A stretch of DNA of 42,882 nt, taken from positions 1-42,882 of the forward strand of contig MNYY01000051.1 in NCBI GenBank assembly GCA_001873345.1, written 5' to 3'. The first letter of the stretch is position 1; each line of letters opens with the position of its first letter. The stretch comes from Candidatus Infernicultor aquiphilus. GTDB lineage: Bacteria; Atribacterota; Phoenicimicrobiia; Phoenicimicrobiales; Phoenicimicrobiaceae. Positions 5,794 through 42,882 of the stretch are shown one piece after another. The position numbers were made by a program, and so were the translations under genes. The notes beneath the pieces are model-generated. The model was not told where the DNA came from. It did no database searches and saw only the letters and a program-made list of their open reading frames with translations.

Positions 5794-6450
5794 ATGATAT
5801 TATATAAGGTTATGAAAATTAAAGATAAAAGATATTTTTCTTTAACCGCGATTATATTAGCGGGAGGGGAGAGCAGCAGGGTAGGTTTAAACAAAAGCAA
5901 AGATCAGATGAAATTAGCCGGAAGGCTTTTAATAGATTGGGTTATATCTACACTTACTTCTCTGGATAATTTAACCAAAGAAGATATTATTATAGTTGGC
6001 TCTAAAGAGAAATATTCTAATTTTAAGAGAGTATTTAAGGATATTTTTCCCCAAAAAGGTCCTTTGGGAGGGATATTTTCTGGCTTAAAGGCCTCTACCT
6101 CCCAGTATAATTTATTAGTAGGTTGTGATATGCCTTTTATAGAGGTAAAATTACTACAGTATATGATAGAAAATATAAATACTTATGATATGGTTATTCC
6201 TTGCCATGGTAAGGGATTAATTGAGCCTTTATGTGCAATTTACAGTAAAAGTTGTTTAGAGGTTATAGAGAGAAACATAAAAGCTGGAGTGTTATCAGTT
6301 AGAGAAATATTTCCCCACTTAAAAGTTAAATTTATTAAAGAGGAAGAGATAAAAAGATTTGATGCGGGACTTTATTCTTTTTTTAATATTAACTTTAAAG
6401 GCGATTTTACTAAGGCAGAAGAATTAATAAAAATGAGGAGAATAAAATAA
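5794..6450 (+). CDS. mobA: Molybdenum cofactor guanylyltransferase
   Basis: 218-aa ORF with MobA motifs: ILAGGESSRVG, GPLGGI and VGCDMPF. The FDH context supports the call. The start could instead be the ATG at 5812. Confidence 0.8.
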   Translation: MILYKVMKIKDKRYFSLTAIILAGGESSRVGLNKSKDQMKLAGRLLIDWVISTLTSLDNLTKEDIIIVGSKEKYSNFKRVFKDIFPQKGPLGGIFSGLKASTSQYNLLVGCDMPFIEVKLLQYMIENINTYDMVIPCHGKGLIEPLCAIYSKSCLEVIERNIKAGVLSVREIFPHLKVKFIKEEEIKRFDAGLYSFFNINFKGDFTKAEELIKMRRIK

Positions 6451-10811: not shown

Positions 10812-10818
10812 TAGCTTA

Positions 10819-11094: not shown

Positions 11095-12191
11095 AATATA
11101 TTGATGAGTATAGGGATAAAAGAATAGCTCAAAACATCTTACAAAAAATTAATATTATTTCCAAAAAAAAGGTAAATTTAATGGAAGTTTGTGGAACCCA
11201 CACGGTAGCTATATTCAGAAATGATATCAAAAAAATATTACCTACCAATATTAATCTTATTTCTGGGCCGGGTTGCCCAGTATGTGTTACTCCCGTTTCC
11301 CATATTGATGAGATAATTAGTTTATCCCGAAAAGAAGATTTTATTATAACTACTTTTGGAGATATGATCAGGATTCCAGGTTCTACTTCTACTTTAGAGA
11401 AAGAAAAAACTAATAGTGCAGACATTAGAATTGTTTATTCTACTTTAGATGCTTTAAAAATTGCCCAAAATAATCCTTCCCAAGAGGTTATTTTTATGGG
11501 GGTGGGTTTTGAGACAACTTCTCCTACTATAGCCAGTGCAATATTAAAAGCCCAAGAAGGTAAAATTAATAATTTTTCTGTTTTGAGTGTAGCCAAGATT
11601 ATGCCTCCAGTAATGAAAGCTTTATTAGAAAGTAAAGAGGTAAATATTGATGGGTTTATTTGCCCCGGACATGTAAGTGCCATTATTGGGAGTCAACCTT
11701 TTAATTTTATTGCTGCTCAGTATGGAGTTCCTTGTGTCATCTGCGGATTTGAACCATTAGATATTTTAGAAGGTATTTATATGCTTATTAATCAAATTGA
11801 AAATGATAAAGCAGAAGTGGAAATTCAATATAAACGCGTAGTTAAACCAGAAGGGAATAGGATTGCCCTAGAGAGAATTAATGAGGTATTTAAAGTGGTT
11901 GATTCTAATTGGAGAGGGATAGGCAATATCCACCATAGTGGTTTAGAGATAAAAGATAAATATAATCAGCATAATGCCAGAAGATTTAAAGTGGAAATAG
12001 AAGAAACTAAAGAACCAAGAGGATGTCGTTGTGGCGAAGTCTTAAGGGGAATAATTATTCCTCCTGAATGTCCTCTCTTTGGAGAGATTTGTACCCCTGA
12101 AGACCCCCAAGGTGCTTGTATGGTTTCCAGTGAAGGCACCTGTGCCGCCTATTATAAATACAGTAGGGGCAGACCTTGTGTCTGCCCGTAA
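11091..12191 (+). CDS. hypD: Hydrogenase maturation Fe-S protein HypD; last 9 codons and stop supplied by a REP
   Basis: 366-aa ORF. The TTG start overlaps the hypC stop (TTGA). MKYIDEYRD, CGTHT, GPGCPVCV and the C-terminal CxxxP region match HypD. The C-terminal SRGRPCVCP-stop is REP-encoded, identical to the tail of ORF 7261-7698. Confidence 0.9.
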   Translation: MKYIDEYRDKRIAQNILQKINIISKKKVNLMEVCGTHTVAIFRNDIKKILPTNINLISGPGCPVCVTPVSHIDEIISLSRKEDFIITTFGDMIRIPGSTSTLEKEKTNSADIRIVYSTLDALKIAQNNPSQEVIFMGVGFETTSPTIASAILKAQEGKINNFSVLSVAKIMPPVMKALLESKEVNIDGFICPGHVSAIIGSQPFNFIAAQYGVPCVICGFEPLDILEGIYMLINQIENDKAEVEIQYKRVVKPEGNRIALERINEVFKVVDSNWRGIGNIHHSGLEIKDKYNQHNARRFKVEIEETKEPRGCRCGEVLRGIIIPPECPLFGEICTPEDPQGACMVSSEGTCAAYYKYSRGRPCVCP

Positions 12192-12240
12192 TAAGGCAGA
12201 CCTTGTGTCTGCCCGTAAAAAGGTAGATCCTGTATCTACC
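12163..12240 (+). repeat. Three tandem REP-type hairpins (full REP, 5'-truncated REP, diverged variant)
   Basis: 12163-12188 is GTAGGGGCAGACCTTGTGTCTGCCCG. 12195-12215 is GGCAGACCTTGTGTCTGCCCG. 12222-12240 is GGTAGATCCTGTATCTACC, with two compensatory C:G to T:A stem changes. Confidence 0.9.
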
Positions 12241-12257: not shown

Positions 12258-12875
12258 ATGTTGTCCATGAACATTAAAAATAAGAAGTGTAATCGTCAGT
12301 CTATTCGTCTTCATGGATACAATTATTCCTATCCTGGAGCATATTTTATAACCATATGTACCCCAGAACAGAAAATGTTGTTAAAATTTAAATATGTGCA
12401 GGTAATGATTCATTCTGTTTGGAATAGTTTACCCGATAGATTTCCTTCTGTAAAATTAGATGAATTTGTAATAATGCCAAATCACGTGCATGCAATTTTG
12501 TGTATAAATATAGTAGGGGCAGACCTTGTGTCTGCCCGTAATAAGGCAGACCTTTTGTCTGCCCCACCGCTTAGTCGTATTATTCAAGCATTTAAATCAA
12601 TTACAACTTATAAATATATTTTAGGGGTGAAAATAAATAATTGGCCAATGTTCAATAAACGCCTATGGCAACGGAATTATTATGACCATATAATACGTAG
12701 CGAGGAATCGTTGAATTGCATTAGAGAATATATTATTAATAATCCAACTCGATGGGAATTTGATAAGGAAAATCCTCGGGGTAAAATAGATAAAAAAGAG
12801 GAAGATTTTTGGAAGGAAATACACTCTCAACCTAAAATTAGGGCAGACATAAAGTCTGCCCCTACAAGGCGTTAA
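12258..12875 (+). CDS. REP-associated tyrosine transposase (RAYT, IS200/IS605 Y1 HUH family)
   Basis: 205-aa ORF. A start at ATG 12267 is more likely, 9 nt after AGGAG. SIRLHGYNYSYPGAYFITICT, the HUH motif MPNHVHAIL (HVH at 12483-12491) and LWQRNYYDHIIRSEESL...YIINNP are family hallmarks. REP DNA lies inside the ORF and at its 3' end. Confidence 0.8.
   Translation: MLSMNIKNKKCNRQSIRLHGYNYSYPGAYFITICTPEQKMLLKFKYVQVMIHSVWNSLPDRFPSVKLDEFVIMPNHVHAILCINIVGADLVSARNKADLLSAPPLSRIIQAFKSITTYKYILGVKINNWPMFNKRLWQRNYYDHIIRSEESLNCIREYIINNPTRWEFDKENPRGKIDKKEEDFWKEIHSQPKIRADIKSAPTRR
12513..12565 (+). repeat. REP doublet inside the RAYT coding sequence
   Basis: 12503-12564 matches 12153-12214 at 60 of 62 positions. 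Here it is read in another frame, as VGADLVSARNKADLLSAP. Confidence 0.9.
12841..12865 (-). repeat. REP, inverted orientation, forming the RAYT 3' end
   Basis: GGGCAGACATAAAGTCTGCCCCTAC. The stem is identical to the REP stem but the loop differs. It encodes RADIKSAPT. Confidence 0.85.
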
Positions 12876-13935: not shown

Positions 13936-13973
13936 TCAATTAACCTATTCCCCAATTCACTAATTCACCAATT
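13936..13973 (-). repeat. Module M1 octamer array, reverse complement, starting 1 nt after the hypE stop
   Basis: TCAATTAACCTATTCCCCAATTCACTAATTCACCAATT is the complement of the AATTGG-type octamers. Confidence 0.9.
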
Positions 13974-14075
13974 AAAATTAGATAGCATACTAAAGATGAT
14001 AATTTAATAGCAGGATTTTTTTATAATTCGTCGAATAAAATGTATAATAAATAACGTATAAGGAGCAGCATATAG

Positions 14076-14167
14076 AAATACAGTGATAGGTAATATGTAA
14101 TGAGTAATGAGTTAATGTTTTAAGTTTAAAAAAAACAGATTACTTTTCACATATTACAGATTACACG
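14076..14167. repeat. Quasi-palindrome made of M3 reverse (14076-14117) and M3-like forward (14136-14167)
   Basis: AAATACAGTGATAGGTAATATGTAATGAGTAATGAGTTAATG ... CAGATTACTTTTCACATATTACAGATTACACG. Confidence 0.75.
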
Positions 14168-14192
14168 ACTTGCTGGAGGACCGGGAAACTTG

Positions 14193-14256
14193 CTAATTAA
14201 ACTAATTGGGTAATTGGCCAATAGGAGAATTGGTGAATTGATATATTGGTAAATTT
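14193..14256 (+). repeat. Module M1 octamer array, forward
   Basis: CTAATTAAACTAATTGGGTAATTGGCCAATAGGAGAATTGGTGAATTGATATATTGGTAAATTT. It ends 20 nt before ATG 14277. Confidence 0.9.
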
Positions 14257-14276
14257 TTATAAAGGTGGTTATAAAT

Positions 14277-14961: not shown

Positions 14962-14984
14962 TCCAAAATTAGAGCTCCCAATGA

Positions 14985-15031
14985 CTAACGACTAATAGAC
15001 AGGCGAGACGCCTGTCCTACTAACGACTAAT
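14985..15031 (+). repeat. Hairpin H4 (GACAGGCG-AGA-CGCCTGTC) flanked by an 11-bp direct repeat TAACGACTAAT (module M4)
   Basis: CTAACGACTAAT-AGACAGGCGAGACGCCTGTCCTAC-TAACGACTAAT. H4 recurs at 30757-30781 and, inverted, at 42626-42650. Confidence 0.9.
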
Positions 15032-15049
15032 TAAGAGGTGATTACTTAA

Positions 15050-16048
15050 ATGAAAGAGGCTTTATTTTACGAATTAGTGGATCAAGAAAAAGGGGTCATA
15101 AAATGTCTGCTTTGTCCTAAAGAATGTTTAATAAAGAAAGACCAGGTTGGTTTTTGCCGAGCTCGTAAAAATATAAATAATAAACTTTATTCTTTAATCT
15201 ATTCTAAAATTTCTTCCTATGGAATGGATCCCATTGAAAAAAAACCACTTTATCATTTTTATCCCGGAATAATGGTTTTATCTCTGGGTACCATAGGATG
15301 CAATTTATCTTGTGACTTTTGTCAGAACTGGACTATTTCTCAGGCAAATATAAAAGATGTGTCAGTAGAAGAGTTATCACCTGAAAAGGCTGTGCAATTA
15401 GCTCTTCAGAATAATTCCCCAGCGATTGCCTACACCTATTCTGAACCATTAATCTGGTATGAATACGTGCTGGATACCGCGAAATTAGCGAAGAAAAATA
15501 ATTTAAAAAATATATTGGTTACCAATGGATTTATTAATTATGAACCTCTCCTTAAAATTCTTCCTTTTATAGATGCTTTGAACATTGACCTTAAATCTTT
15601 TCGAAATTCTTTCTATCAAAAATATTGCCAAGGAAAATTGTCTCCTGTACTACGTACTATCGAGCTTTCTAAAGAATATTGCCATCTAGAAATAACCAAT
15701 CTAATTATCCCTGGTTTGAATGATAGCGAAGAGGAAATTAAAGAGATGGTGGATTGGATTTCTTCTTTAAATGAAGAAATACCTTTGCATTTTTCTCGCT
15801 ATTTTCCTTGTTATAAGATGAATATTTCGGCAACCCCCATTTCCACATTGTATAAAGCTCGGGAGATTGCTCAAAAAAAATTGAAATATGTATATCTAGG
15901 TAATATATGGGATGAGGAAGCTAACGCCACTTATTGTGGTAACTGTAAGACACTTTTGATTAAAAGAACAGGTTATAATATTATTAATTTGGGCTTGGAT
16001 GAAGATGGAAAATGCAGACATTGTGGTGAAAAAGTAGTTCATCTTTAG
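15050..16048 (+). CDS. AmmeMemoRadiSam system radical SAM enzyme
   Basis: 332-aa ORF with AAGAGGTGA upstream. It has an N-terminal CxxCxxxC...C region, DPIEKKPLYHF and the radical-SAM motif GCNLSCDFCQNW. Its partner is the adjacent AMMECR1 gene. Confidence 0.85.
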   Translation: MKEALFYELVDQEKGVIKCLLCPKECLIKKDQVGFCRARKNINNKLYSLIYSKISSYGMDPIEKKPLYHFYPGIMVLSLGTIGCNLSCDFCQNWTISQANIKDVSVEELSPEKAVQLALQNNSPAIAYTYSEPLIWYEYVLDTAKLAKKNNLKNILVTNGFINYEPLLKILPFIDALNIDLKSFRNSFYQKYCQGKLSPVLRTIELSKEYCHLEITNLIIPGLNDSEEEIKEMVDWISSLNEEIPLHFSRYFPCYKMNISATPISTLYKAREIAQKKLKYVYLGNIWDEEANATYCGNCKTLLIKRTGYNIINLGLDEDGKCRHCGEKVVHL

Positions 16049-19528: not shown

Positions 19529-19530
19529 CT

Positions 19531-19700
19531 TTACTTAGTTATCCGGTTAGCCAGTTACTTAGTTTGCCGGTTAATAGGTTTTAGGGCATAAGTTTCGAGT
19601 TTTAAGTTTTAAAGAGGAGTTTGGGTTGGATTCACCCAATCTGTCTGTTCCTTCTGTTATTCCTGCTGGCTAACCGGTAACTGGTAAACTGGCCAACTAA
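19531..19700. repeat. Inverted M12 arms (CCGGTTAGCCAGTTAC-type) around an 84-bp centre
   Basis: The left arm is 19531-19578 and the right arm is 19663-19700. They share CTGGCTAACCGG(A)TAACT in inverted orientation. Confidence 0.8.
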
Positions 19701-19703
19701 TAT

Positions 19704-19749
19704 AATTGGAGAATTGGAGAATTGGTCAATTGGTCAATTGGTCAATTGG
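19704..19749 (+). repeat. Module M1 octamer array: (AATTGGAG)x2 (AATTGGTC)x3 AATTGG
   Basis: Perfect 8-bp phasing. It ends 11 nt before ATG 19761. Confidence 0.95.
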
Positions 19750-19760
19750 AATATAATAAA

Positions 19761-19949
19761 ATGCCTTTAAAATTAGGAATCGGAGATATTGTTAGATTAA
19801 AGAAAAAACATCCTTGTGGGGGTTTTCATTGGGAAATCACCAGGACCGGTATTGATATTGGTCTAAAATGTCTTTGTTGTGGTAGAAAGGTTCTAGTTCC
19901 TCGAGTAAAATTAGAGAAGAAAATTCGTGAAATTGTCCCCAGAGATTAA
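19761..19949 (+). CDS. DUF951 family small protein (YyzM-like)
   Basis: MPLKLGIGDIVRLKKKHPCGG..WEITRTGIDIGLKCLCCGRKVLVPR. The track start at 19722 lies inside the octamer array, so I use ATG 19761. Position upstream of rpsF matches Bacillus yyzM. Confidence 0.7.
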   Translation: MPLKLGIGDIVRLKKKHPCGGFHWEITRTGIDIGLKCLCCGRKVLVPRVKLEKKIREIVPRD

Positions 19950-20741: not shown

Positions 20742-20773
20742 GCAAATTAGTAAATTAGTATATAGTATAACAT

Positions 20774-20880
20774 TTGGTTAGATAGTTAATTGGTTACCTG
20801 GTTAGTTAGTTGATGAATTAAAATCAAACCAGCTAACCAGCTAGCTAGCTAGCTAACTAACTAACTAACTAACTAACTAA
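20774..20880. repeat. Palindromic GGTTAG/CTAACC-type arms ending in microsatellite (CTAG)x3 (CTAA)x7
   Basis: The left arm is 20774-20813, the loop is TGAATTAAAATCA and the right arm is 20827-20880. (CTAG)3 lies at 20841-20852 and (CTAA)7 at 20853-20880. Confidence 0.9.
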
Positions 20881-20920
20881 TTCTGCTTTAAGTTTAAAAT
20901 TTAAAAGAAGAGGTCTTTTA

Positions 20921-21883
20921 TTGAGTGATCAAATTCCAACTAAATCAATAGTTGAAGGTGCATTTCTAGCAGCAATTACCGCTGTTATATTTATCATTAG
21001 TATATATATTCCCTTATTAGGAACATTGGTAAGTTTTTTATGTCCGCTTCCAATTATAATTTTATGTTTACGTCATAGTTTAAAGTTTGCCATTATCTCC
21101 ACTTTTATATCGGGAATTTTGGTAAGTATGTTAGCTGGCCCCTGGCAAGGAATTATGGTTTTGTTGGGTTTTGGGATATTAGGATTGACTTTAGGATTTG
21201 TTATAAAGAATGATTTCTCTTTAACTGATATTATTATGGTTGGGAGTGTAGCTTCTCTCCTTTCCAAAGGTTTAATTCTTTTAATTGGGTTTTGGTTTTT
21301 AAACATTAATCCTGTATTATTCGATGTAGAAGAGATAGACAGAGTTATAACTCAATCTTTGAATTTTTACAACGGTATGGGGTTATCTCCAGAACAATTT
21401 TCTTCAATGAAAGAATCTTTAACCCAAACTATTAATATTGTTCGGATAGCGTTTCCAGGAATGATTATTCTTGCTTCTATTTTTGATACCATTATAAATT
21501 ATTGGGTAGCTCGCTTAGTTTTGAAGAGGTTTGGATATAAACTGTCTAACTTTACCTCCTTTTCTAAATGGAGAGCTTCAAAATCCTTCTTCTGGAGTTA
21601 TTTTTTAGGGGTGATATTGATATTTCTAGGAGCAAAGTATAACCTTCCTCTTCTAAGTAAAATTGGAGTGAATATACAACTATTTTTTTCGGTAGTATTT
21701 TTAATTTATGGTCTTTCTTTAACCGGTTTTATATTAGAACGGTTTAAAATTAAAAATTTTTTGAAGTGGGTTATCTATATCTTGGTATGTTTTCAACCAC
21801 TTTTATCACAGATTGCTACTTGGGCAGCTATGTTAGATATCTGGATAGATTTTAGAAAATTAATTACCGCTAAAGAAGAATAA
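20921..21883 (+). CDS. yybS: DUF2232 (YybS-like) polytopic membrane protein
   Basis: 320-aa ORF with a TTG start and about 8 hydrophobic segments. The conserved position between rpsR and rplI matches Bacillus. Confidence 0.65.
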   Translation: MSDQIPTKSIVEGAFLAAITAVIFIISIYIPLLGTLVSFLCPLPIIILCLRHSLKFAIISTFISGILVSMLAGPWQGIMVLLGFGILGLTLGFVIKNDFSLTDIIMVGSVASLLSKGLILLIGFWFLNINPVLFDVEEIDRVITQSLNFYNGMGLSPEQFSSMKESLTQTINIVRIAFPGMIILASIFDTIINYWVARLVLKRFGYKLSNFTSFSKWRASKSFFWSYFLGVILIFLGAKYNLPLLSKIGVNIQLFFSVVFLIYGLSLTGFILERFKIKNFLKWVIYILVCFQPLLSQIATWAAMLDIWIDFRKLITAKEE

Positions 21884-22459: not shown

Positions 22460-22507
22460 ATTAGTATATTGTATATCGTATATCAAAAAAATAATAATGT
22501 ATAATAC

Positions 22508-22578
22508 GTAGGGGCAGACCTTGTGTCTGCCCGTAATGCGTAATTAGTCCTACGGGCAGACACAAGGTCTGTCCCTAC
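22508..22578. repeat. REPIN: two REPs in inverted orientation
   Basis: GTAGGGGCAGACCTTGTGTCTGCCCG (22508-22533), a 19-nt spacer, then CGGGCAGACACAAGGTCTGTCCCTAC (22553-22578, one mismatch). The flanks are shared with the REPIN at 35577-35690. Confidence 0.9.
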
Positions 22579-22623
22579 GACTATTCACTATTCACTAATG
22601 ACTATTTAACATGGAGTTAAAAA

Positions 22624-29091: not shown

Positions 29092-29106
29092 ATGGAGGTT
29101 AATAAA

Positions 29107-29832
29107 ATGGAGACATCGAAATTAGAAGTAGAATTAAGAAATGGAACTGGGAAAGAAATTAATAAGAAATTTAGGAGAAAAGGTGATATTCCTGGAATAC
29201 TATATTCTCCTCATGATAAAGAAAATATACTGTTAAAAGTTAAAAGAGAAAATTTATTAAGATTATTAGCTAGCAAAACACACCAACTCATTGATTTAGA
29301 AATAGATGATGGGAATAAAAAAGTTAGCCGATTAGTTGTGATTAAAGACTTTCAGTATAATTCTTTAAAGAAGCAGATAGTTCATGTTGATTTTTATGGA
29401 GTAACTCTAAAAGAGAAATTAACCATGGAAATTAATATTGAATTAATAGGCCAACCTATCGGAGCAATAGATGGGGGAATTTTAAATGTGGAATTACGAA
29501 AAGTTGAAATAGAATGTTTACCTTCTAAAGTACCTGAGAGTTTAAAAGTAGATCTAAGTAATCTGAAGATAGGAGATAATATTACAGTTGGAGAAATACA
29601 GCTTCCTGAAGGAGTTGAAGTATTAACTAAATCAGATAGAATTGTTGCTGCCTTAGTTCCTCCTGCTAAAGAAGAAGAGGTAGTTAAAGAAGTAGTAGAA
29701 GGGGAAGCAGTAACCGAAGAAAAAGAAGTAACTAAAGGAGAAGAAAAAGTAGAAGTAAAGACAGAAACTCCTTCTTCTGCACCAAAAAAAGAATCTAAAA
29801 AAGAATCTAAAAAAGAATCTAAAAAAGAATAG
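29107..29832 (+). CDS. rplY: 50S ribosomal protein L25 / general stress protein Ctc, with a low-complexity K/E tail
   Basis: LEVELRNGTGKEINKKFRRKGDIPGILY and a Ctc-type second domain. The tail ends KKESKKESKKESKKE. ATG 29107 is preferred, 8 nt after GGAGG. The track ATG at 29092 overlaps the SD. Confidence 0.85.
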   Translation: METSKLEVELRNGTGKEINKKFRRKGDIPGILYSPHDKENILLKVKRENLLRLLASKTHQLIDLEIDDGNKKVSRLVVIKDFQYNSLKKQIVHVDFYGVTLKEKLTMEINIELIGQPIGAIDGGILNVELRKVEIECLPSKVPESLKVDLSNLKIGDNITVGEIQLPEGVEVLTKSDRIVAALVPPAKEEEVVKEVVEGEAVTEEKEVTKGEEKVEVKTETPSSAPKKESKKESKKESKKE

Positions 29833-29857: not shown

Positions 29858-30442
29858 TTGAAGATGGTAGTTGGTTTGGGTAATCCTGGTTTGCAATATG
29901 AATTCAGTCGACACAATATAGGGTTTAGAATAATTGATAACTTAGCTCTAAATATAGAAATAGAATTTAAAAGGGTGAAATCTTATGATTCATTAGTTTC
30001 CCGAGGGAAACTAATGAATCATAAATTAATATTGGTAAAACCGCAGACTTATATGAATTTAAGCGGGAAATCAGTAAGCAAGATTGTTTCCTACTACCGG
30101 ATATCCTTTCCAGATTTATTGATAGTTTATGATGATCTGAATTTAGAATTAGGTCAGATCAGGATCAGGAAAAGAGGGAGTGCTGGCGGTCATAAGGGAG
30201 TGGAGTCGATTATTCAATATTTAAATAGTGAAGATATACCTCGTTTAAGAATAGGGATTGGTAAACCTTCAATAAATTCTAATTTTGATTATGCCTCTTA
30301 TGTCCTTTCTAATTTTAATAATAACGAAAAGGATAAAATAAGTGAAGTAATACAACTATCTACTGAGGCAATAAAGACAGTAATAGAAGATGGCCTTGAA
30401 AAAGCGATGAGAAAATACAATAGAAAATTGGAGCTATCTTAA
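29858..30442 (+). CDS. pth: Peptidyl-tRNA hydrolase
   Basis: VVGLGNPGLQYEFSRHNIGF, PQTYMNLSG and GSAGGHKG. The start is TTG 29858 or ATG 29864. Confidence 0.9.
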   Translation: MKMVVGLGNPGLQYEFSRHNIGFRIIDNLALNIEIEFKRVKSYDSLVSRGKLMNHKLILVKPQTYMNLSGKSVSKIVSYYRISFPDLLIVYDDLNLELGQIRIRKRGSAGGHKGVESIIQYLNSEDIPRLRIGIGKPSINSNFDYASYVLSNFNNNEKDKISEVIQLSTEAIKTVIEDGLEKAMRKYNRKLELS

Positions 30443-30497
30443 TCTAAAATTATTTACTGTAAAAAATATTATTTAAAGCTATTACCTAATTTCTCCT

Positions 30498-30523
30498 GTG
30501 GGCACGATGCATCGTGCCCCTAC
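30498..30523. repeat. Hairpin H5: perfect 20-nt palindrome GGGCACGATGCATCGTGCCC with a 3' CTAC
   Basis: GTGGGCACGATGCATCGTGCCCCTAC. This is the only copy in the window. Confidence 0.85.
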
Positions 30524-30560
30524 ATTCTAATCCTTCAAATTTCTTCGGTAGAAGTAATTC

Positions 30561-30625
30561 TTATCTCGTATCTCGTAAAGAAAATAGAAGTCAGAATTCA
30601 GAAGTCAGGATCCAGAAGTCAGGAG
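30561..30625 (-). repeat. Module M2 reverse (30561-30580) followed by M5 heptamer array (30586-30625)
   Basis: TTATCTCGTATCTCGTAAAG, then AGAAGTC AGAATTC AGAAGTC AGGATCC AGAAGTC AGGAG. Confidence 0.9.
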
Positions 30626-30666
30626 AAAATGGTAATGAGTGATTGGTAAAGGGTAATAAGTAATGG

Positions 30667-30692
30667 GTAGGGGCTTGATTTATCAAGCCCGG
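30667..30692 (+). repeat. Hairpin H2 (GTAGGGGCTTGATTTATCAAGCCCGG)
   Basis: 9-bp stem GGGCTTGAT/ATCAAGCCC. The same hairpin occurs at 32027 and 36274. Confidence 0.9.
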
Positions 30693-30710
30693 TAAAAACT
30701 TAATAAAGAG

Positions 30711-30781
30711 ATTGCCACGCTCTGATAAATCAGAGCTCGCAATGACTGACGACTAATAGACAGGCGAGACGCCTGTCCTAC
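30711..30781 (+). repeat. Hairpin module M9 (ATTGCCACGC..GCTCGCAAT) + M4 + hairpin H4
   Basis: ATTGCCACGCTCTGATAAATCAGAGCTCGCAATGAC TGACGACTAAT AGACAGGCGAGACGCCTGTCCTAC. The inverted copy is at 42626-42696. Confidence 0.9.
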
Positions 30782-30790
30782 GAATTTTTT

Positions 30791-30944
30791 GGTAAATTGG
30801 TAAATTGGAGAATCGGTAAATTGGTAAATTGGAGAATCGGTAAATTGGTCAATTGGAGAATCGGTAAATTGGTCAATTGGAGAATCGGTAAATTGGTCAA
30901 TTGGAGAATTGGTAAATTGGTTAATTGGTTAATTGATAAATCGG
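30791..30944 (+). repeat. Module M1: five tandem 24-bp units (three octamers each, GGTAAATT-GGTMAATT-GGAGAATC) plus a degenerate tail
   Basis: Units lie at 30791, 30815, 30839, 30863 and 30887, and the tail is 30911-30944. The array overlaps the GGAGG SD (30943-30947) of pfkA. Confidence 0.95.
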
Positions 30945-30957
30945 AGGTAAAATTATT

Positions 30958-31923
30958 ATGAAAATGAAAAAAATTGTTGTTCTTACCAGTGGTGGAGATT
31001 CTCCTGGAATGAATGCTGCTATTAGAGCGGTGGTACGAACTGGCCTATTCCACGGCTTAGAGGTATTTGGTGTGGAAAGAGGGTATACCGGTTTAATAGA
31101 AGGGCAAATTTTTCCGATGAATATATCTTCAGTAGGTGGAATTATACAAAGAGGAGGAACTATTCTTAAGACTTCCCGTTGTGAGAAATTTAAAACTAAG
31201 GAGGGGCTTGATATGGCCCTTCAAAAAATTAGAGAATTTAATATTGATGGATTAGTAGCTATTGGGGGGGACGGTACTTTTCGAGGGATTCGAGAGTTCA
31301 GTGCTTTAGGAGTAAAAACTATGGGAGTTCCCGCTACTATTGATAATGATTTATCTGACACTGATATGGCTATTGGTGTAGACACTGCTTTAAATACAGT
31401 TATGGGGGCTATTGACAAAATCAAAGATACTGCTTCTTCTCATGAGAGAGCTTTTATAATAGAAGTTATGGGAAGAAATTCAGGTTATCTGGCCTTAATG
31501 GGTGGAATTGCTGGAGGAGTTGAAGTTATTCTTATTCCGGAAATTTCTTATAATCTCCCGGAAATTAGTTTAAAATTAAAAGAGGGCTACCAAAGAGGAA
31601 AGTCTCATTGTATTATTGTTATTGCTGAAGGAGTCGGAGAGACTTATGAAATAAGTAAATTTTTAGAAGATAAAATTGGCTTTGAAACGAGAGTTACTAT
31701 TTTAGGTTATTTGCAGAGAGGTGGTTCGCCTTCTGCATTTGATAGGTTATTAGCCAGTCGTTTGGGAGCAGCAGCTGTAGAACATCTACTAAAGGGAGAA
31801 ACATCTAAAATGGTAGGACTAATGGGAAATAAGATTGAAGCAACTGATTTAGAGGTAGTGCTTAGTCAACCAAAAACTATTAGCCAGGATCTTTATAATT
31901 TAGCTTTAAGGTTAGCGAAATAG
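30958..31923 (+). CDS. pfkA: ATP-dependent 6-phosphofructokinase
   Basis: VLTSGGDSPGMNAAIRAVVR, IGGDGTF, PATIDNDL, MGRNSGYLAL and GYLQRGG. Confidence 0.92.
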   Translation: MKMKKIVVLTSGGDSPGMNAAIRAVVRTGLFHGLEVFGVERGYTGLIEGQIFPMNISSVGGIIQRGGTILKTSRCEKFKTKEGLDMALQKIREFNIDGLVAIGGDGTFRGIREFSALGVKTMGVPATIDNDLSDTDMAIGVDTALNTVMGAIDKIKDTASSHERAFIIEVMGRNSGYLALMGGIAGGVEVILIPEISYNLPEISLKLKEGYQRGKSHCIIVIAEGVGETYEISKFLEDKIGFETRVTILGYLQRGGSPSAFDRLLASRLGAAAVEHLLKGETSKMVGLMGNKIEATDLEVVLSQPKTISQDLYNLALRLAK

Positions 31924-32026: not shown

Positions 32027-32083
32027 GTAGGGGCTTGATTTATCAAGCCCGCAATACTCGGGTCGGATAAATCCGCCCCCTAC
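32027..32083. repeat. Hairpin pair H2 + H3 bracketed by GTAG...CTAC
   Basis: GTAGGGGCTTGATTTATCAAGCCCGCAATACTCGGGTCGGATAAATCCGCCCCCTAC. It is preceded by M6 (AGAGCAGTTAGCGTTTGGG, 32006-32024). Confidence 0.9.
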
Positions 32084-35523: not shown

Positions 35524-35535
35524 ATATAGTATATA

Positions 35536-35552
35536 GTATCGCGTATCGCGTG
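35536..35552 (-). repeat. Module M2 reverse (GTATCGCGTATCGCGTG)
   Basis: It is the reverse complement of the forward copy GACGCGATACGCGATAC at 18197-18213. It lies 13 nt after the mfd stop. Confidence 0.85.
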
Positions 35553-35576
35553 AAGAAAATAATAATGTACAATATG

Positions 35577-35690
35577 TAGGGGCAGACCTTGTGTCTGCCC
35601 GAAATGAGTACATTCAAAACAATAGTTTATACAAAAAAATTTTTAATTATGGTTTTTAGTCCTACGGGCAGACACAAGGTCTGCCCCTAC
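35577..35690. repeat. REPIN: inverted REP pair with a 63-nt A/T-rich spacer
   Basis: GTAGGGGCAGACCTTGTGTCTGCCCG-type REP at 35577-35601 and CGGGCAGACACAAGGTCTGCCCCTAC at 35665-35690. The conserved flanks AATAATAATGTAYAATAY and TAGTCCTAC...GAYTATT are shared with the REPIN at 22508-22578. Confidence 0.9.
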
Positions 35691-35736
35691 GATTATTTGA
35701 CAAATTCACTAACGACTAATAAATACGGAGGAGAAA

Positions 35737-40745: not shown

Positions 40746-42491
40746 GTGCCAAAGAAGAAGTGGAACTATATATTATTAACAGGATTTTTAACTTTGATAT
40801 TTATCTGGGTTGGTTTAAATATGGTTGAGGCAGAAAATCAAGGAAAGATAACTGCTATTGTAGTAGAGGGAAATGAAAATATTTCTAAAGATTTAATAAT
40901 TTCTCAAATTACCTCTAATCTGGGAGATGTTTTTTCTAAAGAAAGCATTGAAAAGGATGTAAAAGCGATATATGAGTTAGGTTATTTTAAAGATGTAAGA
41001 GTAAAATTAGAATCTTTTCGAGAAGGGTATAAAGTAGTATTTGTAGTAGTTGAGAATTTAGCGGTAAAAGAAATTAATATTACCGGTAATACGGTAGTCT
41101 CTAAGGAAGAGATGAGAGAAGTAATGATTTTACAAGAAGGACAGATTTTTAGCCAAAAAATATTAAAAAATGATCTTACTCGTATTTCCCAACTCTATAA
41201 AGACCGGGGGTATCTTTTAATTAATATTAAAGATATTAATTTTGATGAAGAAGGAAAATTATGGATAAATATTTCTGAGGGCCGACTGGAAAAGATAGTA
41301 ATTGAAGGTAATGATAAGACCAAAGAAAAGGTAATTACCCGAGAAATTAATATTAAACCTGGAGATCTCTTTGATTTTGAGAAAGTAAAAAAATCTTTAC
41401 AAAAAATCTATAACTTAGGCTATTTTGAAGATGTAACTATGAAATTAGAACCAGGAAGTGAAGAGGATGTAGTAGTTTTAGTAATCAAAGTAATTGAAAA
41501 AAATACCGGGAAATTTGGAATTGGAGCAGGATATAATTCTGAAGAGGGTCTTATGGGATTTGCCAGTATAGAAGAAATGAATCTTTTTGGGGGAGGTCAG
41601 AAAGTAGGAGCCAAATTAGAGTTAGGGGGTCGAACAACTTATAAAGTATCCTTTTTAGAACCGTGGTTAGCTAATACACCTACTTCTTTGGGTTTTGATG
41701 TATATGATACTACAACAAACCAAGAGGATAAAGAGGGTGAAGAAGTTATTGCTGAGTATGATGAAATAAAATTAGGAGGTAGACTTATTTTTGGAAGGAA
41801 GATAAGTGATTCAATTAATTTAGGGTTGGAATTAAAGACTGAAAGAGTGAATTATGATCTGATTTCCGGAGCTTTGCCTGAAGATACTAATGAAGGCTTA
41901 ACTAATAGCCTTATGCCAACTTTTACTTATGACACTCGTGACAATGTATTTGATCCTACTTCCGGTTGGTATAGTAGTCTTTCTATAGAAAAAGCAGGTG
42001 GATTTTTAAGAGGAGATTATAATTTTACTAAATATAATTTAACTCTTAGAACTTATCTTTCTACGGACTTTTTTAAAGATATATTTAATATTGGTGGATT
42101 TAAAAAGATAACTGATAATTTAAGCAAAGGAGTATTGGCTTTTAGAGCTATGGGTGGTATGGCAGATACTGATTTGCCTTCTTTTGCAGAATATCAAGTA
42201 GGAGGAATGAATACGATAAGAGGTTATGATTCAGGTGAATTTTCCGGGGATAAATCTTTGGTATTTAATGCAGAGTATAGATTTCCTTTAGCTGAAAATT
42301 TTCAAGCTGTACTTTTTGTAGATTGGGGCCAAACTTGGGATATTGAAGAAAGCATTGATATTGCTGATTTAAAGTTTGGTCGAGGAGTAGGTGTTCGTTT
42401 TGATACACCTATTGGACCAATCAGATTGGACTATGGTATTAATGAAGAAGGAATTGGAAAAACTTACTTTAGTATAGGACATACTTTTTAG
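40746..42491 (+). CDS. bamA: Outer membrane protein assembly factor BamA (Omp85 family)
   Basis: GTG start 9 nt after AGGAGG. It has a signal/TM segment and repeated POTRA-like units (I..I.VEGN....E.I, Y...GY). The C-terminal barrel carries VGGMNTIRGY and ends in an aromatic residue (HTF). Confidence 0.9.
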   Translation: MPKKKWNYILLTGFLTLIFIWVGLNMVEAENQGKITAIVVEGNENISKDLIISQITSNLGDVFSKESIEKDVKAIYELGYFKDVRVKLESFREGYKVVFVVVENLAVKEINITGNTVVSKEEMREVMILQEGQIFSQKILKNDLTRISQLYKDRGYLLINIKDINFDEEGKLWINISEGRLEKIVIEGNDKTKEKVITREINIKPGDLFDFEKVKKSLQKIYNLGYFEDVTMKLEPGSEEDVVVLVIKVIEKNTGKFGIGAGYNSEEGLMGFASIEEMNLFGGGQKVGAKLELGGRTTYKVSFLEPWLANTPTSLGFDVYDTTTNQEDKEGEEVIAEYDEIKLGGRLIFGRKISDSINLGLELKTERVNYDLISGALPEDTNEGLTNSLMPTFTYDTRDNVFDPTSGWYSSLSIEKAGGFLRGDYNFTKYNLTLRTYLSTDFFKDIFNIGGFKKITDNLSKGVLAFRAMGGMADTDLPSFAEYQVGGMNTIRGYDSGEFSGDKSLVFNAEYRFPLAENFQAVLFVDWGQTWDIEESIDIADLKFGRGVGVRFDTPIGPIRLDYGINEEGIGKTYFSIGHTF

Positions 42492-42496
42492 GAGAT

Positions 42497-42616
42497 AATT
42501 GACCAATTCGCCAATTCTCCGATTAACCAATTAGTCAATTCACCAATTGACCAATTAATCAATTTACCAATTGACCAATTAATCAATTTACCAATTGACC
42601 AATTCACCAATTAACC
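42497..42616 (-). repeat. Module M1 octamer array, reverse complement: 15 phased octamers (AATTNNCC)
   Basis: It starts 6 nt after the bamA stop. The internal 24-bp period (AATTTACC AATTGACC AATTAATC) mirrors the pfkA-upstream array. Confidence 0.95.
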
Positions 42617-42625
42617 AAAAAATTC

Positions 42626-42696
42626 GTAGGACAGGTGTCTCGCCTGTCTATTAGTCGTTAGTCATTGCGAGCTTTGATTTATCGAAGCGTGGCAAT
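42626..42696 (-). repeat. Inverted copy of H4 + M4 + M9 composite
   Basis: GTAGGACAGGTGTCTCGCCTGTCTA TTAGTCGTTA GTCATTGCGAGCTTTGATTTATCGAAGCGTGGCAAT. It is the reverse complement of 30711-30781 with a few substitutions. Confidence 0.9.
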
Positions 42697-42882
42697 CTCT
42701 TTATTCAACTAAAAAATTAAAGCAAAAAGCGAAAAATTATAATTTAAAATTTAAAACTTTTTCTCTTGTATATCGTATAATATATTGAGTATTACGATTA
42801 TTAGAGTACAGGATATGTAGAAGTCGGATTTATCCAACAAAAGACGCAATATGCAATACTATATAAAAAATTTAAGGAGGAG

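Follow-up and report, generated by a model that had tools for sequence, protein, structure and literature searches.

How does a block built of several repeat modules come to stand before one gene and, as its mirror image, behind another? The question is raised by Candidatus Infernicultor aquiphilus, a member of a genus within the Atribacterota family Phoenicimicrobiaceae (PMC11227167); proteins identical or nearly so to those of the contig bear this name or that of Candidatus Atribacteria. In its contig MNYY01000051.1 (42,882 nt, analysed as a whole and here called the window), a block consisting of two hairpins, M9 and H4, a linker of short words and a tandem array of octamers lies 5′ of pfkA and recurs in inverted form 3′ of bamA. 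The window holds about 35 genes, all on the + strand, and the spacers between them are of unusual length and full of repeats. Our analyses lead us to regard the two blocks, with a probability of roughly 0.6, as paralogous arms of an intergenic mosaic based on repetitive extragenic palindromes (REPs), resembling bacterial interspersed mosaic elements (BIMEs) and BOX elements and probably transcribed as a leader or trailer structure. Module cassettes have been copied or lost between spacers and reshuffled among close relatives, and the hairpins have been preserved by compensatory or wobble changes.

Two mirrored blocks at pfkA and bamA

A repeat search of the window recovered the blocks as an ungapped inverted repeat of 209 nt (30702-30910 against 42497-42705) with 85% complementarity, confirming that the mirror-image composites of the original prediction, which was made from the sequence of the window, are real. 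The module coordinates given there are correct to within 2 nt, and the identity outside the array, estimated by eye at more than 90%, was measured as 94% (5 mismatches in 89 nt between the non-array cores of the pfkA and bamA copies). A truncated third copy had been placed near 14968-15031; we found it at 14966-15023, where it is 93% identical to 30727-30784. The blocks were checked in independent ENA, JGI and NCBI assemblies (GCA_002789755.1 is one such assembly), and their presence in many of these rules out an assembly artefact. The modules are arranged as follows.

30702-30710, + strand: junction before M9, AATAAAGAG; in relatives a 56-nt AT-rich arm lies directly upstream, deleted in this strain
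30711-30743, + strand: M9 hairpin, pfkA copy; outer stem ATTGC/GCAAT, inner stem GCTCTGA/TCAGAGC, loop TAAA
30744-30758, + strand: linker GACTGACGACTAATA, pfkA copy; heptamer words of the TAACGACTA type
30759-30777, + strand: H4, pfkA copy; 8-bp stem, 3-nt loop
30778-30781, + strand: unpaired CTAC tag, pfkA copy; on the opposite strand, the tag of a GTAG-tagged REP
30782-30790, + strand: spacer GAATTTTTT from the REP tag to the array
30791-30944, + strand: octamer array (AATTGGNN), pfkA copy; 19 units, 24-nt super-period, 5% C
30945-30960, + strand: Shine-Dalgarno region of pfkA, GGAGG and ATG (30958); the last array unit merges into the Shine-Dalgarno sequence
42489-42491, + strand: stop codon of bamA
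42497-42616, - strand: octamer array, bamA copy; 15 units, beginning 5 nt past the stop codon; + strand 25% C and 6% G
42617-42625, - strand: spacer AAAAAATTC, bamA copy
42626-42648, - strand: GTAG and H4, bamA copy; one G.U pair on the + strand
42649-42663, - strand: linker words, inverted, bamA copy
42664-42696, - strand: M9, inverted, bamA copy
42697-42705, - strand: CTCTTTATT, bamA copy; 3′ of M9 on the + strand, giving a hairpin plus a U-rich tail on the sense RNA
42706-42762, - strand: AT-rich arm, bamA side; AAAAAGTTTTAAATTTTAAATTATAATTTTTCGCTTTTTGCTTTAATTTTTTAGTTG on the - strand; in relatives it belongs to the cassette
14966-15040, + strand: partial copy; 3′ half of M9, linker, H4 with CTAC, further linker words and a Shine-Dalgarno sequence; a radical-SAM gene starts at 15050

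As + strand RNA, each of the two copies has a good fold (z -6.1 and -4.0). The exchange of C:G for T:A that had been noticed inside the inner M9 stem is genuine; the substitution next to it is a G.U wobble on the + strand, and both stem substitutions of the bamA copy (n=2) give G.U pairs on that strand. Across the whole window Rfam 15 at gathering score returned tRNAs only; with permissive thresholds, no match appeared in 30400-31000, and those in 42450-42882 were noise far below threshold. At 42486-42530 an AGGAG motif and the bamA stop codon overlap, and a TTG 4 nt later opens an 11-codon frame inside the array, which is probably meaningless.

The M9 hairpin is built on the frame GAGATTGC...CTCGCAATGAC, which is also present at loci of Nitrospira, Omnitrophota, Desulfomonilaceae and other Atribacterota. 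H4 is nested inside an M9-type frame at two of the loci, L027 and L048. Because neither a GTAG nor a CGTC tag was found beside its palindrome, M9 is not classed as a tagged REP; it is a second, different palindromic unit with a conserved frame. Frames of the M9 type were also noted at L027 (~6040-6120, - strand), L048, L097, L139 and L149 (4935-5015).

The octamers form a hypervariable short tandem repeat. With a period of 8 nt and copy numbers of 19.1 at pfkA and 15.2 at bamA, it qualifies as a variable-number tandem repeat. Six contigs of this species agree at every base of the pth-pfkA spacer outside the array, the spacer being 491, 507, 515 or 531 nt long, and the bamA-side array differs by 24 nt between strains; each of these differences amounts to a multiple of 8 or 24 nt within otherwise identical flanks. 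Since the 24-nt super-periods of the pfkA and bamA arrays differ, the two have expanded independently. A coding tandem repeat was also observed in the L25/Ctc gene (open reading frame 29092-29832), whose 3′ end carries a perfect 12-nt unit, AAAAAAGAATCT, repeated 3.8 times (29785-29830); the length of the protein ranges from 230 to 246 residues depending on the strain.

With 209 nt at 85% complementarity, the pfkA leader arm might pair with the bamA trailer arm on one long RNA, which would thereby be circularised or offer a site to RNase III. The hyp operon would behave likewise through its arrays at 10818 and 13937, since the hypC-hypE and the pfkA-bamA blocks are both bracketed by inverted octamer arrays. 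We nevertheless consider such pairing very unlikely. Mismatches between the arms are divided on the sense RNA into 9 of the G.U type and 9 of the A.C type and thus show no sign of selection for pairing, the array lengths vary independently, and one relative (L150) has the bamA arm and no pfkA arm. Moreover, four other structured spacers lie within the intervening 11.6 kb. An inversion of these 11.6 kb was considered separately and rejected, as gene order and orientation are the same in all independent contigs.

The H4 hairpin and genes for REP-associated transposases

Three tagged H4 copies are present in the window, where 100 shuffles gave an expectation of 0.00, and CTAC follows all three. 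In a scan of one genome per species, the exact H4 core was found in at least 118 genome stretches from many phyla; those represented among the matches listed include Cyanobacteria, Acidobacteriota, Verrucomicrobiota, Planctomycetota, Nitrospirota, Desulfobacterota, Omnitrophota and Atribacterota. Among these same matches the 3′ flank is CTAC or CCAC in nearly all of about 150 copies. The H4 fold, an 8-bp stem with a 3-nt loop, is predicted in every context examined. The defining architecture of GTAG-tagged REPs is a GTAG or GTGG tag followed by a palindrome (PMC3733652). Because the opposite strand of H4 reads as such a tag and then a palindrome, we classify H4 as a GTAG-tagged REP, the predicted cognate hairpin of a clade of REP-associated tyrosine transposases (RAYTs), which are Y1/HUH enzymes.

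A candidate transposase of this clade was identified by tblastn, using as the query an Escherichia coli RAYT sequence. The match was an open reading frame in a Nitrospirae locus, situated between two inverted H4 copies and matching the Pfam family Y1_Tnp (PF01797). Its homologues form a clade with 60-93% identity to the Nitrospirae protein, and their sources, as named, are Nitrospirae, Actinobacteria, Delta- and other Proteobacteria, Schekmanbacteria, Syntrophaceae and Atribacteria. The Atribacteria member scores 99 bits against NF047646, the NCBI model for REP-associated tyrosine transposases, which has a cut-off of 80. In all five loci that were fetched (L078, L153, L155, L156 and L157), the gene is framed in the order GTAG-H4, RAYT, H4-CTAC; they come from Nitrospirae, Schekmanbacteria, Actinobacteria and two Atribacteria contigs, that is, from four phylum-level groups. 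The occurrence of the same H4 REP with the same RAYT clade in at least four such groups suggests that the pair has spread horizontally among phyla, unless the metagenome-assembled genomes are contaminated.

The window itself carries a gene of this kind.

12267-12875, + strand: RAYT-like Y1 transposase gene between hypD and hypE; Y1_Tnp E 9e-7; RAYT model 63 bits, E 2e-17

The protein has the HVH and YYDH/NNP motifs, and an in-frame insertion of a REP dimer (12513-12567) directly follows the HUH motif. The gene is flanked by GTAGGGGCAGACCTTGTGTCTGCCC REPs of a family other than H4, upstream at 12163-12218 and, inverted, downstream at 12841-12865; this shows a REP/RAYT system to be resident in this genome. 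The number of perfect hairpins with a GTAG or GTGG tag in the window points the same way: there are 19, belonging to four or five families, against 0.27 in shuffled sequences. Within these 43 kb, all three H4 copies and the 19 tagged hairpins lie outside genes or at gene edges.

A compensated stem change in the H4 variant of one relative (L149), GATAGGCG...CGCCTATC, is among the changes by which the hairpin has been kept. At three loci (L132 5129-5190, L138 and L129), some strains have a 22-nt unit, CCTGTCYTCGTGAAAACGGGGA, nested in the H4 loop, and at these loci H4 is plain in other strains, a hint of a concerted change of the copies or of repeated insertion targeted to the loop.

Turnover and orientation of the modules in relatives

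We compared orthologous regions of relatives with 94%, 93% and 82% MazG identity, and a search of metagenomes for the linker-H4 junction provided 17 loci, all from the Infernicultor lineage. The pfkA site alone exists in several forms. In L132, the 56-nt AT-rich arm precedes M9, the 22-nt unit sits in the H4 loop, and there are only 6 octamers; the window retains this arm only at bamA (42706-42762). L128 has M9, linker and H4 without octamers, and L149 has an H4 variant with 3 octamers and without M9. In L150, no trace of the block is seen 5′ of pfkA, where a pth terminator and a promoter-like site (TAGACA-17-TAGAAT) are found instead, although the full block is kept after bamA. The difference may be a gain or a loss of the block, the pfkA spacer of L150 being otherwise unalignable with that of the window. 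L151 has neither block; galT stands between pth and pfkA, and both sites bear hairpins of GGTTAG-type words. After bamA, L138 has the array and H4 without M9. A shorter bamA spacer in L145 (190 against 400 nt) was rejected as an empty site, since the scaffold contains a run of N there.

The space occupied by the repeats upstream of pfkA has a history of its own. The relative with 82% MazG identity has galT there (L151 4188-5195), closer relatives (L149 5149-5220; L128) have only the galT promoter and the first ~100 nt of the gene, and in the window nothing of galT is left and the space is taken by repeat modules.

Parts of the block are found at other genes as well. The cassette of AT-rich arm, M9 and linker precedes mfd and mazG in L132 and L150, adjoining the Shine-Dalgarno sequence, and further genes are preceded by linker-H4, alone or accompanied by octamers, in L134, in L137 and at 14966 in the window. 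In L125 a cassette in inverted orientation comes after a stop codon, just as at bamA, and in L126/L130 the H4 end of linker-H4 points to a stop codon ~115 nt away. In total, sub-composites are dispersed over at least nine loci of the lineage, whereas the full five-module form (AT-rich arm, M9, linker, H4 and array) was found only at the pfkA and bamA sites. The empty sites for which the original prediction had proposed to look are exemplified by L150, unoccupied at pfkA and filled at bamA. The description of the unit as a dispersed composite element holds as far as dispersal is concerned. A single composite it is not, as the modules assort independently in close relatives.

These comparisons bear on the possibility that the block is one non-autonomous MITE-like element (MITE, for miniature inverted-repeat transposable element) that inserts whole and owes its orientation to landing at the 5′ or 3′ end of a gene. 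Two cores 94% identical in opposite orientation, a gene-facing end that is always the same and a presence/absence polymorphism at the pfkA site would all be expected of such an element. However, the five-module form was seen at only two sites, its modules are separate or recombined at orthologous sites of strains with 93-99% protein identity, and the internal super-structure of the array differs between the copies. The block ends themselves show neither terminal inverted repeats nor target-site duplications, and ends and content vary among copies and relatives. Insertion as a single unit therefore appears unlikely.

The cassette sites whose orientation could be read number nine, six facing a start codon and three facing a stop codon (bamA, L125 and L126/L130), and the H4 or array end is gene-side in each. 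The earlier statement that the array always lies next to the gene is borne out at these nine sites, if the H4/linker end is counted along with the array; at one further locus, L129/L141, linker-H4 is located mid-spacer and not beside a gene. We then surveyed the polarity of seven word families over ~200 kb of lineage DNA, assigning matches in spacers between co-directional genes to the stop-side or the start-side half. Five of the families gave the following counts, which include some orthologous spacers of relatives and are thus not fully independent.

Octamer: forward, stop-side/start-side 0/14; reverse 4/1
TCGTATC: forward, stop-side/start-side 10/0; reverse 2/6
CAGAAGT: forward, stop-side/start-side 7/0; reverse 0/2
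GGTTAG: forward, stop-side/start-side 8/2; reverse 1/6
Linker (TAACGACTA): forward, stop-side/start-side 3/11; reverse 11/1

These five word families are orientation-locked, with one orientation on the stop side and its reverse complement on the start side. The GTAATGA and TAGCG words are central in the spacers and of mixed orientation. The octamer arrays obey the rule in 18 of 19 matches, and in all non-redundant arrays except L087 the 3′ end of the G-rich strand lies at most 42 nt from a gene boundary; on reading, this apparent exception proves to have reverse arrays that set in right behind the stop codon, together with a forward array at the start codon. Generic sharing of 8-mers between stop-side and start-side halves gave only a moderate signal (355 versus 216 shared 8-mers), because AT-rich, low-complexity words dilute it; the counts by word family are far cleaner.

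The rule reflects the construction of the spacers. Those of the lineage are nested inverted repeats, with tandem arrays on the gene side, REP hairpins further in and AT-rich arms in the centre, and as a consequence the start-side arm at pfkA and the stop-side arm at bamA are mirror images. A spacer with outer octamer arms and inner GTAATGA arms (13936-14264) is an example of such a nested palindrome, and folding of the spacers gave a mean z of -4.6 against shuffles, compared with ~0 for coding windows. To say that the words on the start side are reverse complements of those on the stop side is formally equivalent to calling the spacer dyad-symmetric, so polarity belongs to the spacer architecture. 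The proposal that polarity tracks the gene end accordingly stands as a rule, but it is not specific to this unit. Dyad symmetry leaves a frequency bias unexplained, in that octamers occur mostly at start codons and the TCGTATC and CAGAAGT words mostly at stop codons.

Several spacers of the window (13936-14264, 19529-19762, 20743-20920, 22460-22623 and 35524-35736) are nested palindromes of inverted word arrays around REP dimers, with z down to -13.7. A (CTAA)12 microsatellite at 20833-20880 is the right arm of a GGTTAG-type hairpin 5′ of the gene at 20921. In L141 (600-1130, the same locus as L129), start-type arm words are followed by a stop-type AT-rich arm, a reversed order that would be expected had a gene between two spacers been deleted.

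Such rapid turnover among close relatives, together with the hypervariable arrays and with repeat modules filling the place of the lost galT, could also mean that the blocks are a neutral by-product, junk palindromes generated by hairpin-primed inverted duplication and slippage, whose polarity would follow from the common descent of palindromic arms. We find this improbable, since the gene-end preference of the word families exceeds simple dyad symmetry, the arrays end exactly at a Shine-Dalgarno sequence or a stop codon, and the hairpins are kept intact by compensatory changes. Another possibility would be a role at the DNA level, in which arrays and REPs bind nucleoid proteins, gyrase or an array-specific polar protein and mark gene boundaries or topological domains. 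The strict 8-bp periodicity, a word vocabulary conserved down to relatives with 82% protein identity and the precedent of the E. coli BIMEs (PMC2817692) are in keeping with it. Yet copy number is free to vary between strains, a period of 8 bp does not keep phase with the DNA helix, other word families replace the arrays at the same sites in relatives, and no candidate binding protein was identified, so that a DNA-level role is equally improbable.

A repeat mosaic, its proposed origin and its possible roles

If the blocks are arms of a REP-based mosaic, their origin may be pictured as follows. H4 presumably spread as single-stranded hairpin DNA, and the TAACGACTA linker words and AATTGGNN octamers, as short tandem repeats, would grow and shrink by replication slippage. 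Copying of cassettes between spacers may have proceeded through REP/RAYT activity, ectopic recombination, gene conversion or inverted duplication. Both copies would be transcribed together with their genes. On the pfkA side, two stable hairpins and a nearly C-free, unstructured array could form a 5′ leader that protects the mRNA end, in which the C-poor tract cannot sequester the purine-rich ribosome-binding site and leaves it unpaired. On the bamA side, a C-rich, G-poor tract followed by the same hairpins could act as a 3′ stabiliser or terminator, M9 being followed there by CUCUUUAUU.

Several points weigh against this reading. We infer the leader and trailer roles from sequence. A consensus scan of the pfkA and bamA spacers found no sigma-70-like promoter above shuffle expectation, and a corresponding scan against shuffles found no canonical intrinsic terminator in either. 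Evidence from G.U pairs for selection on the hairpins as RNA is divided, with two substitutions for it and one against, the latter being an H4 substitution in L150 that gives C.A on the sense strand. An H4-type RAYT was found in another Atribacteria genome and not yet in this species. REPs elsewhere lie mainly downstream of genes (PMC3733652), whereas most cassettes here are upstream. Finally, slippage and copying alone do not account for the preference of octamers for start codons and of TCGTATC and CAGAAGT words for stop codons.

The closest known relatives of H4 are the GTAG-tagged REPs and their RAYTs (Nunvar 2010, PMC2817692; Di Nocera 2013, PMC3733652). They share with it a GC-rich 8-bp stem, a 3-nt loop and an unpaired GTAG or GTGG, and they are likewise extragenic, present in multiple copies, dimer-forming and inverted around RAYT genes. 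Unlike those REPs, which are usually downstream of genes, H4 is found mostly in 5′ leaders beside start codons and is embedded in tandem heptamer or octamer arrays; the same H4 REP also accompanies one RAYT clade (60-93% identity to the Nitrospirae query) across many phyla. The E. coli BIMEs are similar in being intergenic mosaics of REPs and other short conserved motifs in a defined order and orientation. BIMEs, however, alternate the orientation of their REPs, lack a variable tandem array and have no sequence similarity to the blocks. In the blocks no REPs alternate: H4 and M9 are present once each, point the same way and are accompanied by a tandem array. Alternating REP dimers do occur elsewhere in the window (32027-32083 and 22508-22578). 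Binding of gyrase and integration host factor has been shown for BIMEs, and binding of either of these or of Pol I counts among their characteristics.

Pneumococcal BOX elements and the intergenic mosaic or Correia-type repeats of Neisseria are also modular, and a central or terminal tandem module varies in its number of copies; these elements fold into stable RNA hairpins, are adjacent to genes and can alter expression. BOX modules travel jointly as A-Bn-C, whereas the modules described here reassort, and sequences and hosts differ; we know of no link between BOX elements and RAYTs. The cyanobacterial short tandemly repeated repetitive (STRR) sequences are families of tandem 7-nt words that fill spacers genome-wide and whose function is unknown. 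They belong to another phylum and use other words, and to our knowledge neither a locking of their orientation to gene ends nor a coupling to REP hairpins has been described. Simple-sequence contingency loci, such as the 5′ untranslated region repeats of Haemophilus, are tandem tracts upstream of genes whose length changes between strains by slippage (PMC12721329). The octamer arrays differ from them in preceding housekeeping genes (pfkA, tamB and hypC), and no logic of on/off switching is evident.

In the literature library that was searched, neither octamer or heptamer arrays of Atribacterota nor the repeats of this organism were found to be described. Descriptions of REPs and their domesticated transposases usually concern Proteobacteria, place the repeats downstream of genes and treat them as vertically inherited. 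The present REP mosaic belongs to an uncultured subsurface phylum, is located mainly in 5′ leaders, is fused to hypervariable arrays and strictly obeys a mirror rule at the two ends of genes. This leader-side placement, the fusion to hypervariable octamer arrays and the lineage-wide mirror grammar appear to be undescribed.

A broader idea, which we put forward as doubtful, is that the spacers of the Infernicultor/JS1 branch obey a dedicated repeat grammar serving as transcript punctuation. Inverted copies of a single vocabulary would frame every gene, with tandem octamer or heptamer arrays in contact with its start and stop codons, REP hairpins of the RAYT type beyond them and AT-rich arms in the centre. 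C-free arrays would be unstructured, ribosome-loading leaders, C-rich and G-poor arrays Rho-loading trailers, and the hairpins would protect mRNA ends, the whole being maintained by REP/RAYT systems exchanged between phyla. If true, a bacterium would here be assembling its untranslated regions from mobile repeats in a manner not described before. More generally, if the arrays and hairpins act on mRNA, the spacers of this lineage would provide a natural system in which mobile repeats turn into leader and trailer elements; if they do not, they would be a clear case of fast spacer turnover while genes stay 93-99% identical.

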